Counted from the stretch's first letter, positions 40,521 to 47,824 are shown. The stretch: 64,000 nucleotides of DNA from Candidatus Saccharimonadia bacterium (GCA_963717365.1 OY970327.1:587599-651598), one strand, 5' to 3'. Numbers and translations are program-made. The notes: generated by a model not told the origin, from the letters alone.

Positions 40521-40568
40521 ACAGGCAGATTGCCATTTAATGGGCAGTCTGCCTGTATTTTTGTTTTA
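40521..40568 (+). terminator. Orphan plus-strand intrinsic terminator
   Basis: 14-bp stem 40521-40534 / 40543-40556 whose only non-Watson-Crick position (t40530 with g40547) is a G-U pair on the plus strand but A-C on the minus strand. It is followed by ATTTTTGTTTT. No plus-strand ORF of 60 aa or more lies upstream. Confidence 0.55.
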
Positions 40569-41230: not shown

Positions 41231-44152
41231 CTACGCTTTTTCAAGCGACAATTTTAGGTCATGACCTTCGACCGAGATAACAGCCGTGTAGCTGTATTCG
41301 CCTTTGTAGGCTACTGATTTCGCAAGCGTTTCACCTGCAATAACAGATTCGAACATAGTTATTGATTCAAGTAATTTTCCGTTTGCTTGGAGCGACAGAT
41401 TTATCCGGTCATCAATCTGCAACCCAGCTTGCTTGCGGGCATTTTGGATATGGCGAATCACTTCGCGCATCAGACCCTCCCGACGAAGTTCGGGACTGAT
41501 CTCTAGATTCACTACAACCAGCGGTGTTTCAGCACGGCTATGCGTAAAAACTTCTTTAACATTGAGCTCTTCAACGATAATTTCCTGCAGTTCAGGGTTT
41601 AGTATCTTGTTTTCATCAAGAATACTGACCGACTGGAGGGGCTGGCGAACTTTTATTTGGGCTTTGGCGCGCTGCGACAGACCCTCATTGATGATTTCGC
41701 GCACAAAGGCCATATCTCGTACTAGAAGGTCGTTTATGTGGCCAGAAGCGGGCCAATCCAGTAAATGTACGCTCTCGCCGCCCGTGAGCTTCTGATACAG
41801 TTCTTCGGCCAAGAATGGCGTAAATGGTGCCATTATTATGCTGAGCTGCGTTAGGACGTAGTGTAGCGTGCGATAGGCCGTCTGTTTATCAGTATCGTCA
41901 CCGCTTTTCCAAAATCGGCGGCGGCTGCGGCGGACGTACCAATTAGAAGCGTCCTCTATAAATGGTAGGATCGGCTTAACGGCATTTGGCACGTCGTACT
42001 TGGTCATATGCCCATCAATTTCGGCGGCAAGCTGGTGGACTCGGCTTACGATCCATTTATCCAAGGAGTTATTAAGGCTATTAGTTGGATCATCAAGACT
42101 GCCGCCCCACTCCCATTTATCTACTTCGGCGTACAAGGTAAAAAAGTCGTACATATTCCACACCATACTCAGCTTGCGGCTAATGTCGCCGATCTCTTTA
42201 TCTTTAACTGCAAAGTCCTCGCCGTTTAACAAGGGTGACTGCAATAGCAGAAAGCGCAGCGCATCAGCGCTGTATTGATCAATTAACAGATTGGGATCAG
42301 TGTAATTACCGAGACTTTTACTGAGTTTGCGACCATCGTTTCCCTGGATAGTACCGGTTACGATGACGTTATTAAAGCTATTCTTTCCAAACAGTCCTAC
42401 GTTTACGGCATGTAGGTAGTAGAACCAGGCACGTACCTGGCCAACGTATTCCACAATGAAGTCGCCGGGATAATTCTGCTCGAATTTCTCCACATTTTCG
42501 AAGGGATAATGGAACTGTGCGAACGGCATGGAGCCGGACTCAAACCAACAGTCTAACACCTTGTCTATGCGTTTATACTCAATACCATCAATGGTAAACT
42601 TCACATTATCAACCCAGGGGCGATGGTAATCTTCCAGCGTAACACCTGACAGTTCCTTAAGTTCAGCGTAACTGCCAACAACTTTGACCTGCTCGTTGCC
42701 CTCTTTGTCTATACCTTTCCAGACTGGCATGGCGGTAGCCCAAAAGCGGTCGCGGCTGAGATTCCAGTCAGGCGCGGATTGAACAATATTATTGAACCGA
42801 CCGTGCTTAATATGCTCAGGGAACCATTCAATATTGCTGTTTTCCTCCAACATTTCGGCCCGCTGGCCATCAATATCCATAAACCAGCTGGGGTGCGCCC
42901 GGTACATAAGCTTAGTGCCACATCGGTGGCAATGGGGGTAGCTGTGCGTAATATAATCAATTTTCCAAATAACACCGCGCTCGTGCAAGATTTTGGCGAT
43001 TGGCTTGTTGGCGTCCCAGACATACTGCCCTTTCCATTCGCCAGATGTATAGTAGCCGCTGTCGTCAATATTACTAACAAAAGGAAAACTATTTTCACGC
43101 GACAAGGCATAGTCTTCCTCGCCGTAAGCCGGTGCCAAATGTACCAGGCCGGAACCGTCTTCTAGATTCACATAGTCGGCATGCCATACTCGATGAGCAT
43201 TTTGGGAGGTTTCACTACTTCCCTCCAAACGACGGTCTTCAAACAACGGTTCATATGATTTTCCGACTAGTTCCTTGCCCTTGAATTTGCGCAGTACCGT
43301 ATGGTCGAGCGGCTGATGCTTTTCATCGGTTAACACTTTGGAAATCAGTTCGCTGGCTAAAATAAACCGTTCTTTGGTGTCAGTTAGCTGAACTTCACTG
43401 TATTCAAAATCCTGGTTTACCGCGACAGCAGTATTGGCTGGCAGCGTCCACGGCGTTGTGGTCCAAGCTAGCAAGCTGGCGCCTTTGAATGATCCCTTTT
43501 TGTCCTCAAGCTTAAATTTTACATAAACCGAGGGATCGGTCACGTCCTGATAGCTGTTATCCATAGCCACTTCGGCCTTGCTGATAGGTGTGGCATCCCG
43601 TACGCAGTAAAGCAATACCTTCTCGCCCTCGTAGATTTTACCCTTCTCGTGAAGCTGCTTAAAAGCCCACCAAACAGATTCCATGTACTCTTTATCCATG
43701 GTTTTATAGGCGCCCTTAAAGTCTACCCAGCGGCCGATCCGATCAATCGTGTCTTCCCACATATCACCGGTCGCTACCATGTTTTCTCGGCAGGTTTTGA
43801 CGTACTCTTCCAGACTAATCTTAGTACCAATGTCTCGCCGGTCCTTGATGCCCAGTTTTTTCTCGGTGAACACTTCGGCTGGTAAGCCATGGCAGTCCCA
43901 GCCCCACACCCGCTCGACGCGCTTCCCTTTCATCGTCCAGTAACGGGGTACTGCATCTTTAACGATACTACTGAGCAAGTTGCCATGATGCGGCTGCCCG
44001 GTGATAAATGGGGGTCCGTCATAAAAAACATATGAGTTACTGTCGGGCCGGTTCTGGACCGATTTCTCAAACGTCTTGTTCTTTTTCCAATATTGGACCA
44101 GGTCTTTTTCGTAATCGATGGCTTGGCGCCGGGTACCTTGCTTAAATTTCAT
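41231..44152 (-). CDS. ileS: Isoleucyl-tRNA synthetase
   Basis: 973 aa with a HIGH-like PHHGNL, KMSKS-like KLSKS and a CP1 editing domain. Confidence 0.95.
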   Translation of the reverse strand: MKFKQGTRRQAIDYEKDLVQYWKKNKTFEKSVQNRPDSNSYVFYDGPPFITGQPHHGNLLSSIVKDAVPRYWTMKGKRVERVWGWDCHGLPAEVFTEKKLGIKDRRDIGTKISLEEYVKTCRENMVATGDMWEDTIDRIGRWVDFKGAYKTMDKEYMESVWWAFKQLHEKGKIYEGEKVLLYCVRDATPISKAEVAMDNSYQDVTDPSVYVKFKLEDKKGSFKGASLLAWTTTPWTLPANTAVAVNQDFEYSEVQLTDTKERFILASELISKVLTDEKHQPLDHTVLRKFKGKELVGKSYEPLFEDRRLEGSSETSQNAHRVWHADYVNLEDGSGLVHLAPAYGEEDYALSRENSFPFVSNIDDSGYYTSGEWKGQYVWDANKPIAKILHERGVIWKIDYITHSYPHCHRCGTKLMYRAHPSWFMDIDGQRAEMLEENSNIEWFPEHIKHGRFNNIVQSAPDWNLSRDRFWATAMPVWKGIDKEGNEQVKVVGSYAELKELSGVTLEDYHRPWVDNVKFTIDGIEYKRIDKVLDCWFESGSMPFAQFHYPFENVEKFEQNYPGDFIVEYVGQVRAWFYYLHAVNVGLFGKNSFNNVIVTGTIQGNDGRKLSKSLGNYTDPNLLIDQYSADALRFLLLQSPLLNGEDFAVKDKEIGDISRKLSMVWNMYDFFTLYAEVDKWEWGGSLDDPTNSLNNSLDKWIVSRVHQLAAEIDGHMTKYDVPNAVKPILPFIEDASNWYVRRSRRRFWKSGDDTDKQTAYRTLHYVLTQLSIIMAPFTPFLAEELYQKLTGGESVHLLDWPASGHINDLLVRDMAFVREIINEGLSQRAKAQIKVRQPLQSVSILDENKILNPELQEIIVEELNVKEVFTHSRAETPLVVVNLEISPELRREGLMREVIRHIQNARKQAGLQIDDRINLSLQANGKLLESITMFESVIAGETLAKSVAYKGEYSYTAVISVEGHDLKLSLEKA

Positions 44153-44282
44153 CGGATGCCTTTCTTTTACTTCTTGCTGATATTGTTTTGGTTGTACTTT
44201 ATAGCGCTATACCTTGATTTCATTAAATTATAATGAAGTCGAGATATAGCACTCAAAACCATATAGCCGCCTTCAAAGTACT

Positions 44283-44490
44283 AAAAAAGCACCTTGTCCG
44301 GCTGTCAGAATCCCACTATAAGGGACGGTACCATCTGACTTCCAAACAAGATGCTTGTTTAAACATCGCGTTTAGCGCTTAATTTACAGCTGTAACGGGC
44401 CAATCCGTCAGGTTCTACTGAGTGAAGTGACAAAGCGCTTCTCTGTTCTGCCTGCTACCTTCGCGGGTGATAACCGCTCATCTGATCTGA
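44283..44490 (-). promoter_or_regulatory. T-box riboswitch leader of ileS (Ile specifier AUC), ultrashort Stem I type
   Basis: Read on the minus strand. GAUGA GA-motif, then hairpin GCGG-UUAUCAC-CCGC-GA with AUC-A in the 7-nt loop (AUC = 44471->44469). F-box CCGUUA at 44399->44392. Stem III AAACAAG-CAU-CUUGUUU at 44360->44344. T-box core AGAUGGUACCGUCCC at 44336->44322, forming helix GUCAGA/UCUGAC with bulge UGGUACCG (44339->44304). Confidence 0.6.
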
Positions 44491-44556
44491 TAGCTCAAAC
44501 TAAGAACCAGTCGATCAAAACGTATGTACTTGGCAGTATATCAGATTTCTGGTCGC

Positions 44557-44820
44557 CTAAATATGGGTGTAGTATGAAATTTCTTGCATCAGAGGAAAAT
44601 CAGTGCCTTGCCAAAATTTAACTAGCTGCCCATCCGTACCCAATACGAGAATGGCTGGGTGTTGGATGATGTCATAGAGACTAGCGGTTGATGAGCCATC
44701 CCTAGTATCTATATTTACTAGATCGATTCGCGCTTGGTGTTGTCGTTCTAGTTCCCGGGCAAAATCTTCTACCATACGAGAGAATTCTGAGTTCGGACGG
44801 TAAAGCATAACTACCTTCAT
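44557..44820 (-). CDS. Thioredoxin-fold small protein lacking the CxxC motif
   Basis: 87 aa with a beta-alpha-beta pattern (KVVMLY...IDLVNID...HPAILVLG...LVKFWQG). NSEFS sits where CxxC is expected. TGCTATACT (44836->44828) lies 7 nt upstream of ATG 44820. Confidence 0.45.
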   Translation of the reverse strand: MKVVMLYRPNSEFSRMVEDFARELERQHQARIDLVNIDTRDGSSTASLYDIIQHPAILVLGTDGQLVKFWQGTDFPLMQEISYYTHI

Positions 44821-45001: not shown

Positions 45002-47824
45002 TTACGAACATCCAGTGGTGCTGCCGCAAGAAGTACAGACGTAACAGCTGCCAGAGCGCTGCGTCTGATTACCGCAGTTATAGCACATCGGTGCAGTATC
45101 GTCCTGCTTAGCAGACAGACTACTCCGCTTTTGGGCTGTCGCGGCCATAGCAGTGTCTACACCTGGCGCTTCGGCTGTATCCGACTCAACTGAAACTGAT
45201 GCAGGCAATGCTACAACGGTTGCTTCAACAATTGTCGAACCTTCTACAATGCTTGTTTCCTCGGTGAGTAAGCTGGTCTGAACCTCGGGTATGTCATCAA
45301 AGGAAGCCAAGCCGAGCTCCAAACGGTCATCGAATGACAAGTAGTTAATTGCCAGGCGACGGAAGATGTAGTCGATCAATGATGACGCCGTACGAACTTC
45401 CGGGTCGTCCGTGATGCCGGCGGGCGCAAAACTGGTACTCATGAATGTTCTTACGTATGTCTTGAGCGGAACACCGTACTGCAGTCCGTGACTGACAGAT
45501 ATGGCGAAGGCATCCATGATGCCCCGCAGGGTTGAACCGTGCTTGGCAAAGTGGATAAATAACTCTCCAGCACTACCATCTTCATACTCGCCAACAGTGG
45601 CATAGCCTTTAGAATCAGCTACCCGGAACGAGAAGGTCTTTGAAGAACGGATTTTTGGCAGTTCACGGCGGACCGCGCCCCTGACAATAATCTTGTCATT
45701 GATATCTTCGACAGTAACTGCTTCTTTATCTTCAGAGCTGGCTTTTTTGGCCATTGCCAGCGGCTGGCCAACTTTACAGTTGTCGCGGTACACTGCTACA
45801 GCTTTTAGGCCGAGCTTCCAGGCATCAAGATGAATCTGCTCAATGTCTTCTAAGGTAGCTTCTTCCGGCATATTGACGGTCTTACTAATAGCTCCCGAGA
45901 TAAATGGTTGCACGGCAGACATCATTTTGACGTGGCCAAGGTAATGGATTGAGTTGTCGCCCATTGAGCAGGCGAAGACGTTTTTGTGGTTTGCCTTGAG
46001 GTGTGGCGCACCGATGATGGTTTTTTCAGTGTCGATGTAGGCCACGATGTCTTTAACCTGGGCGGCCGTATAGCCAAGCGCCTTTAGAGCACGGGGCACA
46101 GTCTGGTTCACGATATGCATAGTACCACCGCCAACCAATTTTTTAACTTTTACCAAACCAAGGTCAGGCTCGATACCAGTAGTGTCGCAGTCCATCATCA
46201 AGCCAATGGTGCCGGTTGGCGCTAGTACGCTAGCCTGAGAGTTGCGGACGCCGTACAATTCGGATAATTCAACGGCATTGTCCCATGCGGTTGCCGCTGC
46301 GCTCAAAAGCTCTTCAGAAACAAGGCTGGCATCAACATCGTTAATAGCAGCGCGGTGCTGCTTAAGGATCTTGATTACATTTTCCTGGTCTTTATGGAAA
46401 CCAGCAAACGGACCGACCTTGCGGGCAATCTTAGCGCTGGTAGCATAGGCGTGCCCGGTCATTAGCGCCGTGATGGCAGCTGCTTGGGCTCGACCTTCTG
46501 CTGAGTCGTATGGCAGACCTTGAGCCATTAGCAAAGCACCGAGGTTGGCGTACCCAATACCTAATTCGCGGTAAGCTCGGGCATTCTTAGTGATGCTTTC
46601 GGTTGGATACTCACTATAGCCGACTAGAATTTCCTGGGCAGTAAAGATCAATTCTACGGTGTGCTTAAAGGCTTCAATATCAAAGCTAAAGTCATCACGA
46701 AGATATTTCAACAGGTTGATTGAGGCCAGGTTACAAGCGGAATTGTCCAGGTGCATGTATTCCGAGCATGGATTGGAACCATTGATGCGTCCGGCGTTTG
46801 GTGTGGTATGCCAGTGGTTAATAGTGGTATCAAACTGCATACCCGGATCAGCGCATTCCCAGGCTGCCTGGGCGAATTGGCGCATCAGATCCCGGGCTTT
46901 AATAGTTTTAACTGATTTGCCGGTCCGAACAGCCTTCAGATCCCAGTCATCATCATTTTCAACAGCTTGCATGAACTCGTCGCTGACGCGGACTGAGTTA
47001 TTAGCATTCTGATACTGCACGGAGAAAGAATCTTTGCCGTCCATGCTCATATCAAAGCCGGCAGCCTGCAAAGCGCGAGCTTTGCGCTCTTCAATGGCTT
47101 TAGACCAAATGAATTCTTCAACATCGGGATGATCGGCATTTAAAATCACCATTTTAGCGGCCCGACGGGTTTTACCACCACTCTTAATGGCACCAGCCGA
47201 TGCATCGGCGCCACGCATGAAGCTGAGCGGGCCAGAAGCAGTACCGGCTGACTTGCCAAGCGGTTCCACTGACGAGCGGATGCCGCTTAGGTTGATACCA
47301 GAGCCTGAGCCGCCCTTAAAGATCATGCCTTCTTCTTTGTACCAGTTAAGGATGGCTGGCATAGTATCTTCGATACCAAGGATAAAGCAAGCGCTAGCCT
47401 GTTGGGCGCGGTCTGGCGCGCCAATATTAAACCACACCGGTGAGTTAAAAGCTGCCCGTTGAGTTGCTAGAATATACTTTAATTCTTCGCGGAAGGTTTC
47501 GGCGTCTTCGCCGGACTCAAAATAATTTTCTTGTATGCCTTGGCGAGTAACAGTGTCAACGACACGGTTGATGAGATCTTTGAGTGAGGATTCGCGATCT
47601 TTAGTGCCGGGCGTACCGGTAAAGTATTTCTGCGCTACGATATTAATCGAATTAAGCGACCATTCTTCTGGGAATTCGACGCCGAATTGCTCGAATACAT
47701 TCTTCCCGGTCATCGGATTAGCGATGATAGAGTCGCGCTTAACCCAGGTTAACTGGTCGTACGCCTTCGTTTTTGAGTCGGTGAAAAGACGACCCAATGT
47801 TAAATTGGTTGTTTGTTGACCCAT
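45002..47824 (-). CDS. nrdJ: Class II (adenosylcobalamin-dependent) ribonucleotide reductase NrdJ
   Basis: 940 aa with a long actinobacterial-like NrdJ layout, active-site NPCSE, and a Cys-rich C-terminal tail CYNCGNQTQRSGSCYVCTSCGSTTGCS. A GAGGG SD is present. Confidence 0.9.
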   Translation of the reverse strand: MGQQTTNLTLGRLFTDSKTKAYDQLTWVKRDSIIANPMTGKNVFEQFGVEFPEEWSLNSINIVAQKYFTGTPGTKDRESSLKDLINRVVDTVTRQGIQENYFESGEDAETFREELKYILATQRAAFNSPVWFNIGAPDRAQQASACFILGIEDTMPAILNWYKEEGMIFKGGSGSGINLSGIRSSVEPLGKSAGTASGPLSFMRGADASAGAIKSGGKTRRAAKMVILNADHPDVEEFIWSKAIEERKARALQAAGFDMSMDGKDSFSVQYQNANNSVRVSDEFMQAVENDDDWDLKAVRTGKSVKTIKARDLMRQFAQAAWECADPGMQFDTTINHWHTTPNAGRINGSNPCSEYMHLDNSACNLASINLLKYLRDDFSFDIEAFKHTVELIFTAQEILVGYSEYPTESITKNARAYRELGIGYANLGALLMAQGLPYDSAEGRAQAAAITALMTGHAYATSAKIARKVGPFAGFHKDQENVIKILKQHRAAINDVDASLVSEELLSAAATAWDNAVELSELYGVRNSQASVLAPTGTIGLMMDCDTTGIEPDLGLVKVKKLVGGGTMHIVNQTVPRALKALGYTAAQVKDIVAYIDTEKTIIGAPHLKANHKNVFACSMGDNSIHYLGHVKMMSAVQPFISGAISKTVNMPEEATLEDIEQIHLDAWKLGLKAVAVYRDNCKVGQPLAMAKKASSEDKEAVTVEDINDKIIVRGAVRRELPKIRSSKTFSFRVADSKGYATVGEYEDGSAGELFIHFAKHGSTLRGIMDAFAISVSHGLQYGVPLKTYVRTFMSTSFAPAGITDDPEVRTASSLIDYIFRRLAINYLSFDDRLELGLASFDDIPEVQTSLLTEETSIVEGSTIVEATVVALPASVSVESDTAEAPGVDTAMAATAQKRSSLSAKQDDTAPMCYNCGNQTQRSGSCYVCTSCGSTTGCS

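Follow-up and report, generated by a model that had tools for sequence, protein, structure and literature searches.

In this study, we analysed a 64,000-nt stretch of DNA from a Candidatus Saccharimonadia bacterium (GCA_963717365.1 OY970327.1:587599-651598), called the window below, in which an isoleucine-specific T-box leader lies at 44283-44483 on the minus strand, between an 87-aa open reading frame (ORF, 44820 to 44557) and the regulated gene ileS (44152 to 41231). Positions are counted from the first nucleotide of the window, and the features lie on the minus strand unless another strand is given. The gene (41231-44152) was identified as ileS by TIGR00392 with 827 bits and carries the Pfam domains tRNA-synt_1, Anticodon_1, and DUF5915, and the closest homologs of its product, IleRS, belong to Candidatus Saccharibacteria/Saccharimonadales. 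The comparison set was taken from this group and consisted of 160 ileS loci, 80 of them from species-representative genomes and 80 from metagenome contigs.

Identification of the T-box leader

At the Rfam gathering score, no match was found anywhere in the 64-kb window. A permissive local Rfam scan gave a full-length match of the leader to RF00230 (model positions 1-219) with 30 bits and a local E of 6.6e-5, and five relatives reached 32-37 bits, all of them below the gathering score of 93 bits. The score is low because the 88 model positions of Stem I are replaced in the leader by 13 nt, which form a 4-bp hairpin; the leader lacks the extended Stem I that, with its AG bulge and distal loop, serves class I T-boxes as the platform for the tRNA elbow. 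Since the scores fall so far under the gathering score, standard annotation misses this saccharibacterial T-box family.

In most orthologous ileS loci, TGGTACCG was found 60-110 nt 5' of the ATG, followed by a T-run some 45 nt downstream. RNAalifold, run on a seed alignment of 34 leader sequences (alignment A1), returned a consensus that contains Stem I, the Stem II base, Stem IIA, the helices A1 and A2, and a long-range helix, and compensatory changes were present in 31 of its 37 pairs. The covariance model built on this alignment (R1) matched a full-length leader 5' of ileS in 76/80 genomes and 72/80 metagenome contigs (148/160), and in the 64-kb window it found a single site with 140 bits (E 2.5e-29). 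An alignment of 66 leaders was then made with R1, from which the conservation and pairing counts given below are taken. Standard pairs filled 95.9% of its pair cells, compared with 75.4% after shuffling (0/500 shuffles as high) and 33-51% when the partners were slid against each other, and all helices of the leader covary.

An earlier reading made from the DNA alone (the sequence-only reading) had proposed an Ile T-box before ileS, and the full-length RF00230 match, the family model R1, and the TIGR00392 assignment all bear this out. It had also named a covariance-model search as the check; the local RF00230 match and the R1 hit are significant, but the Rfam gathering score was not attained. 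The elements that it had placed on the minus strand (GA motif, Stem I, F-box, A1, A2, long-range helix, U6, the ileS ATG at 44152, and a TATAAT box) are where it had put them. Judged on its sequence and that of its relatives, the leader before ileS is almost certainly a genuine T-box riboswitch.

The decoding half

The 5' half of the GA (K-turn) motif, AGAUGA, lies at 44478-44483, as seen in the sequence and in the RF00230 alignment, and GA or AA stands directly 5' of Stem I in most relatives. Stem I (44461-44477) is an ultrashort 4-bp hairpin with the arms GCGG (44477-74) and CCGC (44466-63), a 7-nt loop UUAUCAC (44473-67), and a 3' GA (44462-61). The loop presents the specifier AUC (44471-69), which codes for Ile as the regulated gene requires, followed by the purine A44468. 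The four pairs are 99.2% paired with compensatory changes in 4/4, and the variants among relatives include GCGG/CCGC, GUGG/CCAC, GCGA/UCGC, GCAG/CUGC, ACGG/CCGU, and AUGG/CCAU. The AUC is invariant (66/66 leaders) and is followed by A in 65/66. An ultrashort Stem I with the specifier in its terminal loop had been claimed from the window, with conservation of the AUC loop in orthologous leaders as the check; both the loop and the covarying stem agree with this claim.

Stem II (44409-44454) falls on the Stem II of the Rfam model, with the base CAGG/CCUG and the S-turn GAA...AGUAGA. The base helix is 99.6% paired with compensatory changes in 4/4 pairs, and the S-turn signature A-UAGA is invariant in the 34-sequence alignment. 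The Stem IIA/B pseudoknot region (44388-44408), located by the Rfam alignment and a pairing test, includes the F-box CCGUUA (44398-44393). Stem IIA is (A)CGG/CCG(U), 98% paired, and the IIB loop GGC can pair with GCU at 44390-88; the duplex between this loop and the tail was stronger within a locus than across loci (p = 6e-16). As far as its sequence tells, the decoding half matches the actinobacterial ileS type, with K-turn, short Stem I, S-turn, and pseudoknot.

The discriminator

Studies have shown that the discriminator cannot do without Stem III, which is one of its integral parts and is needed for binding of the tRNA 3' end in the T-boxes studied, and the signature of the discriminator has been defined as 5'-RRRxG-Stem III-AA-3' (PMC7583486). 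In the window, the purine string AAGCG (44376-44380) represents the RRRxG motif directly 5' of Stem III, and an RRRxG pentamer abuts the best-anchored Stem III on its 5' side in 54/66 leaders. Stem III, the helix of the ON state (44342-44375), is a 14-bp interrupted hairpin of -11.8 kcal/mol, the 3' strand and loop of which (44354-44342) also serve as the 5' arm of the terminator base described below. In the anchored alignment, Stem III was 93.8% paired, a percentage that is inflated because the set was picked by best anchored pairing, and had compensatory changes in 7/8 pairs with 0/500 shuffles as high; the diversity of pair types is not affected by this choice. The span from 44360 to 44344 drawn in the sequence-only reading shares the 3' strand, but the relatives make 44375 to 44342 the most likely extent, with the compact form as an alternative.

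After Stem III follow the AA linker and an antiterminator-type hairpin (44304-44341), which consists of A1, a 7-nt T-box bulge, and A2 with a G.U pair; the linker between Stem III and A1 reads GAA in 62/66 leaders. Helix A1 is GUCAGA/UCUGAC (44339-34 and 44309-04) and helix A2 is UCCC/GGGA (44325-22 and 44314-11), which are 99% and 90.6% paired, respectively, both with compensatory changes. The bulge UGGUACC (44333-27) is kept in 59/66 leaders, and in some lineages it carries UGGA or UGGC in place of UGGU. At the base of A2, G44326 pairs with U44310 as the conserved G.U sensor, and so the bulge, correctly placed and read before, has 7 nt and not the 8 nt that had been drawn.

The expression platform

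Stem III contributes its loop and 3' arm, GCAUCUUGUUUGG (44354-42), as the complement of CCGGACAAGGUGC (44289-44301), the 3' arm of the terminator base, and a U6 tract (44283-44288) comes immediately 3' of the latter. The resulting long-range helix has 13 bp with exactly three G-U pairs, has a duplex energy of -18.5 kcal/mol, and encloses an intact A1/bulge/A2 hairpin. It appears in the single-sequence minimum free energy (MFE) fold of the window leader as well as in the family consensus, where 13/14 pairs show compensatory changes and 90-96% are paired. Tested independently of any alignment, the two arms of a locus paired with a mean of -12.0 kcal/mol, compared with -6.0 kcal/mol across loci and -4.6 kcal/mol for shuffled arms. 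Besides the U paired at the helix end, at least 5 U occur in the 8 nt after the helix in 52/66 leaders. The platform is thus arranged as an intrinsic terminator, in which a U-tract abuts a stable helix, and this arrangement is conserved in the family; a simple terminator scanner misses the site because the loop is longer than 8 nt. A helix between the 3' arm of Stem III and the segment after A1, followed by a U-run, is what the sequence-only reading had seen in this one leader. Its second claim, that the canonical terminator is missing, was likewise confirmed: a terminator whose 5' strand is the 3' halves of A1 and A2 is ruled out, as these halves have no complement downstream (mean fold -3.5 kcal/mol).

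Stem III and the long-range helix share a strand, and the three strands involved vary together. They read CUUUUGAG / CUCAAAGG / CCUUUGAGG in the lineage of L013, L031, and L062, and CUAGAAGAG / CUCUUUUGG / CUAAAAGAG in the L001 lineage. In such type-1 leaders, to which the window belongs, one strand is selected to pair with two partners, a pattern characteristic of a switch. When the 3' arm was blocked, 66/66 leaders folded as Stem III plus A1/bulge/A2 (ON state), and when it was free, 66/66 folded into one long hairpin in which A1/A2 were kept atop the new base helix (OFF state). The OFF state was more stable than the ON state by a mean difference of -13.6 kcal/mol; in the window, the energy changed from -26.7 (ON) to -39.8 kcal/mol (OFF), a difference of about 13. 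These folds make it very probable that a two-state structure is conserved in the family. What is established are the elements and their conservation, the covariation and relative stabilities of the two competing helices, and the lack of a canonical terminator.

The same helix could also be read as a constitutive structure, one that serves simply to close the discriminator or is a constitutive attenuator, while regulation would come from elsewhere, for example from bound tRNA that sterically hinders completion of the hairpin, or from mRNA stability. A1/A2 are compatible with the long-range helix, so that tRNA could in principle bind both states, and some relatives (type-2 leaders, see below) have no Stem III and hence no obvious competitor. 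However, the three-way covariation indicates that, in type-1 leaders including that of the window, the same strand is under selection for two partners, and Stem III, which is needed for binding of the tRNA 3' end in the T-boxes studied, cannot coexist with the helix. We therefore consider a constitutive helix unlikely.

Transcription or translation

The intergenic region 3' of ileS holds two strong hairpin-plus-U terminators, at 40521-40556 on the plus strand and 40757-40730 on the minus strand, with stems of 14 bp and 12 bp, which shows that the genome uses classical intrinsic terminators. In nearly all leaders, a working Shine-Dalgarno (SD) sequence stands between the U-tract and the ATG, outside the helix, and in 70% of leaders it binds at -8 kcal/mol or better. 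Together, the U-tract abutting the helix throughout the family, the terminators of this genome, and the position of the SD point to transcription attenuation.

One argument for translational control, in which the long-range helix would be a sequestrator, comes from the helix itself. Its purine-rich 3' arm might be an SD, or a mimic of one, that is hidden by the anti-SD-like strand of Stem III: SD-like arms such as AAGAGGUGAU occur opposite a shared strand AUCACCUCUU that is similar to the anti-SD of 16S rRNA, and 42% of leaders have a 3' arm that binds this anti-SD at -8 kcal/mol or below, compared with 5% of background windows. In three loci (L003, L008, and L056), the AUG follows the U-run by 3-7 nt, and the type of decoding domain is known only from translational T-boxes. 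Nevertheless, a separate and stronger SD outside the helix is present in nearly all leaders, and SD sequestration as a general mechanism was rejected. The helix ends about 22 nt from the ATG in most leaders, while in the window the distance is 133 nt, which makes SD sequestration impossible there; the 3' arm of the window is also only a weak SD (-7.4). Translational control would leave the U-tract that directly abuts the helix across the family unexplained. A class II OFF helix sequesters the ileS SD and disrupts the antisequestrator, whereas here the SD lies outside the helix and A1/A2 stay intact in the predicted OFF state. We therefore give translational control a low probability; the SD-like 3' arm may be a relic of an ancestor under translational control, or may add a further layer of regulation in some lineages.

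Proposed switch mechanism

We believe that tRNA-dependent transcription attenuation of ileS by strand exchange at Stem III is the best explanation of the predicted structures, and we hold it to be likely. Binding of the tRNA, termination at the U-tract, and kinetic competition are the steps that we infer. Stem I would recognise the tRNA-Ile(GAU) anticodon with no contact to the elbow of the tRNA, and the UGGU of the bulge would pair with the ACCA end of the tRNA. Stem III would be transcribed and folded first, and the 13-nt competitor segment would emerge just after A1, followed by U6. With uncharged tRNA-Ile bound, Stem III and its purine flanks would dock onto the tRNA/bulge duplex; the downstream arm would then be unable to displace the 5' arm of Stem III before the polymerase clears the U-tract, and ileS would be transcribed. 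When tRNA is absent or charged, Stem III would remain undocked, the more stable long-range helix would form beneath the intact A1/A2 hairpin, and the long hairpin abutting the U-tract would terminate transcription. For the M. tuberculosis ileS T-box, it has been reported that with a charged tRNA(-mimic) Stem III moves off the antisequestrator and is undocked (PMC12647780).

Several points weigh against this mechanism. Co-transcriptional T-boxes are held to need a long Stem I for fast capture of the tRNA (PMC7583486), and it is absent here. At about 40 nt, the hairpin that makes up the apical part of the terminator is unusually large, and some lineages have a weak base helix (about -8 kcal/mol). 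No tRNA gene was found in the window and no tRNA-Ile gene in 60 related loci, among which the only tRNA was a tRNA-Leu in L055. Furthermore, the type-2 leaders (L005, L010, L016, L026, L044, L053, and L055) lack Stem III; in these, the helix next to the U-tract pairs the purine-string AAGUCCC with GGGGCUU around a normal A1/bulge/A2 hairpin. Strand exchange at Stem III is consequently not the whole story for type-2, which fits a terminator that sequesters the 5' flank of the discriminator instead.

The last of these points is a promoter-like sequence downstream of the leader, which raises the question of whether the T-box is partly or fully bypassed in this genome. A lineage-specific spacer of 130 nt (44153-44282), outside the conserved design, separates U6 from the ileS ATG, and it contains a sigma-70-like TTGAGT-18-TATAAT, with the TATAAT box at 44232-27, that matches at 10/12 positions. 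A promoter in this insert could drive ileS by itself: the insert is unique to this lineage, and the T-box has been lost wholly in a few relatives (L011, L030, and L105). However, promoter-like matches were as frequent as in shuffled sequence (3 found, 2.1 expected), and the -10 element lies within the region of a very stable hairpin. The window leader has moreover kept all conserved features, and its 140 bits are typical of the family, which argues for continued selection. A bypass is thus, in our opinion, very unlikely, and attenuation at Stem III remains the explanation that we prefer for this leader. We also lean, by a small margin of belief, towards its extension to the whole family, namely that the leaders of Saccharibacteria form an unrecognised T-box class with elbow-free attenuation and strand exchange at Stem III, in which the acceptor-end hairpin stays folded.

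Upstream ORF, promoter, and spacer

The 87-aa ORF (44557-44820) is conserved and lies directly upstream of the leader, with co-oriented homologs in 122/160 loci. It had been labelled thioredoxin-fold; a Pfam Thioredoxin match exists, but it is sub-threshold (E 0.011), is the sole basis of the label, and belongs to a protein without cysteine. The motif TGCTATACT ends 7 nt 5' of the ORF's ATG and there is no SD, which suggests a leaderless mRNA. Judging from this spacing, the ORF is probably expressed from such an mRNA, as had been proposed. Immediately upstream of the ORF, a class II (B12-dependent) ribonucleotide reductase with a TSCPD domain is encoded at 45002-47824 on the minus strand.

A candidate extended -10 element for the leader transcript, TGATATACT, was found by sequence at 44535-44543, where it was taken to overlap the 3' end of the upstream ORF. 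In 139 related leaders, -10-like hexamers clustered 27-37 nt 5' of the leader, with about 107 in the interval -45 to -20 compared with 16 in -90 to -65. Because of this clustering and of TGATATACT in the window, the leader probably has its own internal promoter. The T-box had been suspected to be intercistronic; the conserved, co-oriented ORF directly upstream makes read-through possible, but a promoter of its own is likely.

The insert that forms the 130-nt spacer is missing from the closest relatives (81% identity), and the median gap from the U-tract to the ATG among relatives is about 22 nt. The spacer folds into a hairpin of -43.2 kcal/mol (z = -5.7). No copy of it was found elsewhere in the 64-kb window or in the 160 related loci, and a repeated mobile element was therefore rejected. 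It contains the palindrome TATAGCGCTATA at 44200-44211, which had been reported one base off (44199-44210), and a possible upstream ORF of 31 codons. In the MFE fold of the window, the U-tract pairs with the SD region of ileS (AGAAAGGC). Matches to microRNA families at 44197-44259 in the permissive Rfam scan were spurious and reflect only the spacer hairpin.

Variants among related loci

In two of the loci without a T-box, L011 (2430-2515) and L105, the small ORF abuts ileS, while L030 (2290-2515) has a 178-nt gap with no T-box. The ileS of L011 itself looks leaderless from its sequence, in which TGCTATACT, 8 nt, and the ATG follow one another. In about 15 loci (L008, L012, L023, L024, L047, L049, L050, L055-L057, L064, L071, L078, and L080), the T-box lies 370-1640 nt 5' of ileS with another ORF between them, so that the leader would control a small operon. 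An ORF of 178 aa is common to L012, L050, and L064 and overlaps the ileS start by 4 nt; its identification in L012 as a CYTH protein was dropped, as there was no Pfam match.

Most relatives (e.g., L002, L027, L029, L032, and L040) have a P0 hairpin directly 5' of the GA motif, about 15-30 nt upstream. It differs by lineage (UCUGC/GCAGA, CCUGC/GCAGG, UUCAUC/GAUGAA, or CUCUUA/UAAGAG), and the equivalent in the window (about 44484-44527) is longer and ambiguous in its fold.

Comparison with known T-boxes and significance

The ileS T-boxes of Actinobacteria, such as those of M. tuberculosis and M. smegmatis ("class II"; Sherwood et al. 2015; structures 6UFG/6UFH), are translational. The saccharibacterial leader resembles them in the ileS gene, the AUC specifier, and a short or ultrashort Stem I without the distal elbow platform. 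Further common features are the K-turn, the S-turn of Stem II, the IIA/B pseudoknot, and a discriminator with Stem III, a UGGN bulge, and a G.U pair. The difference, compared by description, lies in the OFF state: in Actinobacteria it is an SD sequestrator that breaks the antisequestrator helices, and in the M. tuberculosis ileS T-box breaking the antisequestrator is required, whereas the saccharibacterial OFF helix keeps A1/A2, consumes Stem III, and precedes a U-tract without including a working SD. The hosts differ as well, Actinobacteria there and Saccharibacteria, members of the Candidate Phyla Radiation (CPR), here.

The canonical transcriptional T-boxes of Firmicutes (RF00230; B. subtilis tyrS and glyQS) share with the proposed mechanism that uncharged tRNA blocks an intrinsic terminator, that the discriminator core and T-box sequence are present, and that the terminator is more stable than the ON state. 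Their long Stem I, which docks on the tRNA elbow through the AG bulge and distal loop, is absent here, and the 5' strand of their terminator is formed by the 3' halves of A1/A2 (PMC7583486), whereas here it is the 3' strand of Stem III. As in other strand-exchange riboswitch platforms, a single strand can pair with either of two partners but not with both at once, and the choice between them is probably kinetic, made during transcription. The shared strand, however, belongs here to the peripheral Stem III, which acts by tertiary docking, rather than to the helix in which the ligand itself is held.

Ultrashort ileS T-boxes are treated as translational in reviews published up to 2026, and the class II model of TBDB was, according to its authors, run only on Actinobacteria and on class I hits. 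In the searchable literature, we found no description of T-boxes in Saccharibacteria, TM7, Patescibacteria, or CPR, nor of a terminator based on Stem III, although an earlier mention is possible. A class II-type decoding module joined to a transcription terminator that competes for Stem III, as modelled here, is apparently new.

With this leader, T-box regulation reaches into the Candidate Phyla Radiation, a group whose cis-regulatory RNAs are little explored. The family stands before ileS in most of the Saccharibacteria examined, and yet Rfam-based annotation does not see it. Its mechanism would contradict the working rule that transcriptional control by a T-box requires the long Stem I platform and that an ultrashort Stem I belongs to translational T-boxes. 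The competitor attacks Stem III and not A1/A2, which fits recent structural and single-molecule work in which docking of Stem III separates charged from uncharged tRNA, and the leader of about 200 nt offers a compact natural system for testing this idea. If the proposed mechanism is true, the decision would read the docking of Stem III on the tRNA/bulge duplex and not the integrity of the antiterminator, and the SD-like arm of the terminator would identify the family as an evolutionary link between the translational T-boxes of Actinobacteria and the transcriptional ones of Firmicutes. Saccharibacteria live on Actinobacteria, and a decoding architecture common to both raises the question of whether it goes back to common descent or to gene transfer of an ileS leader.

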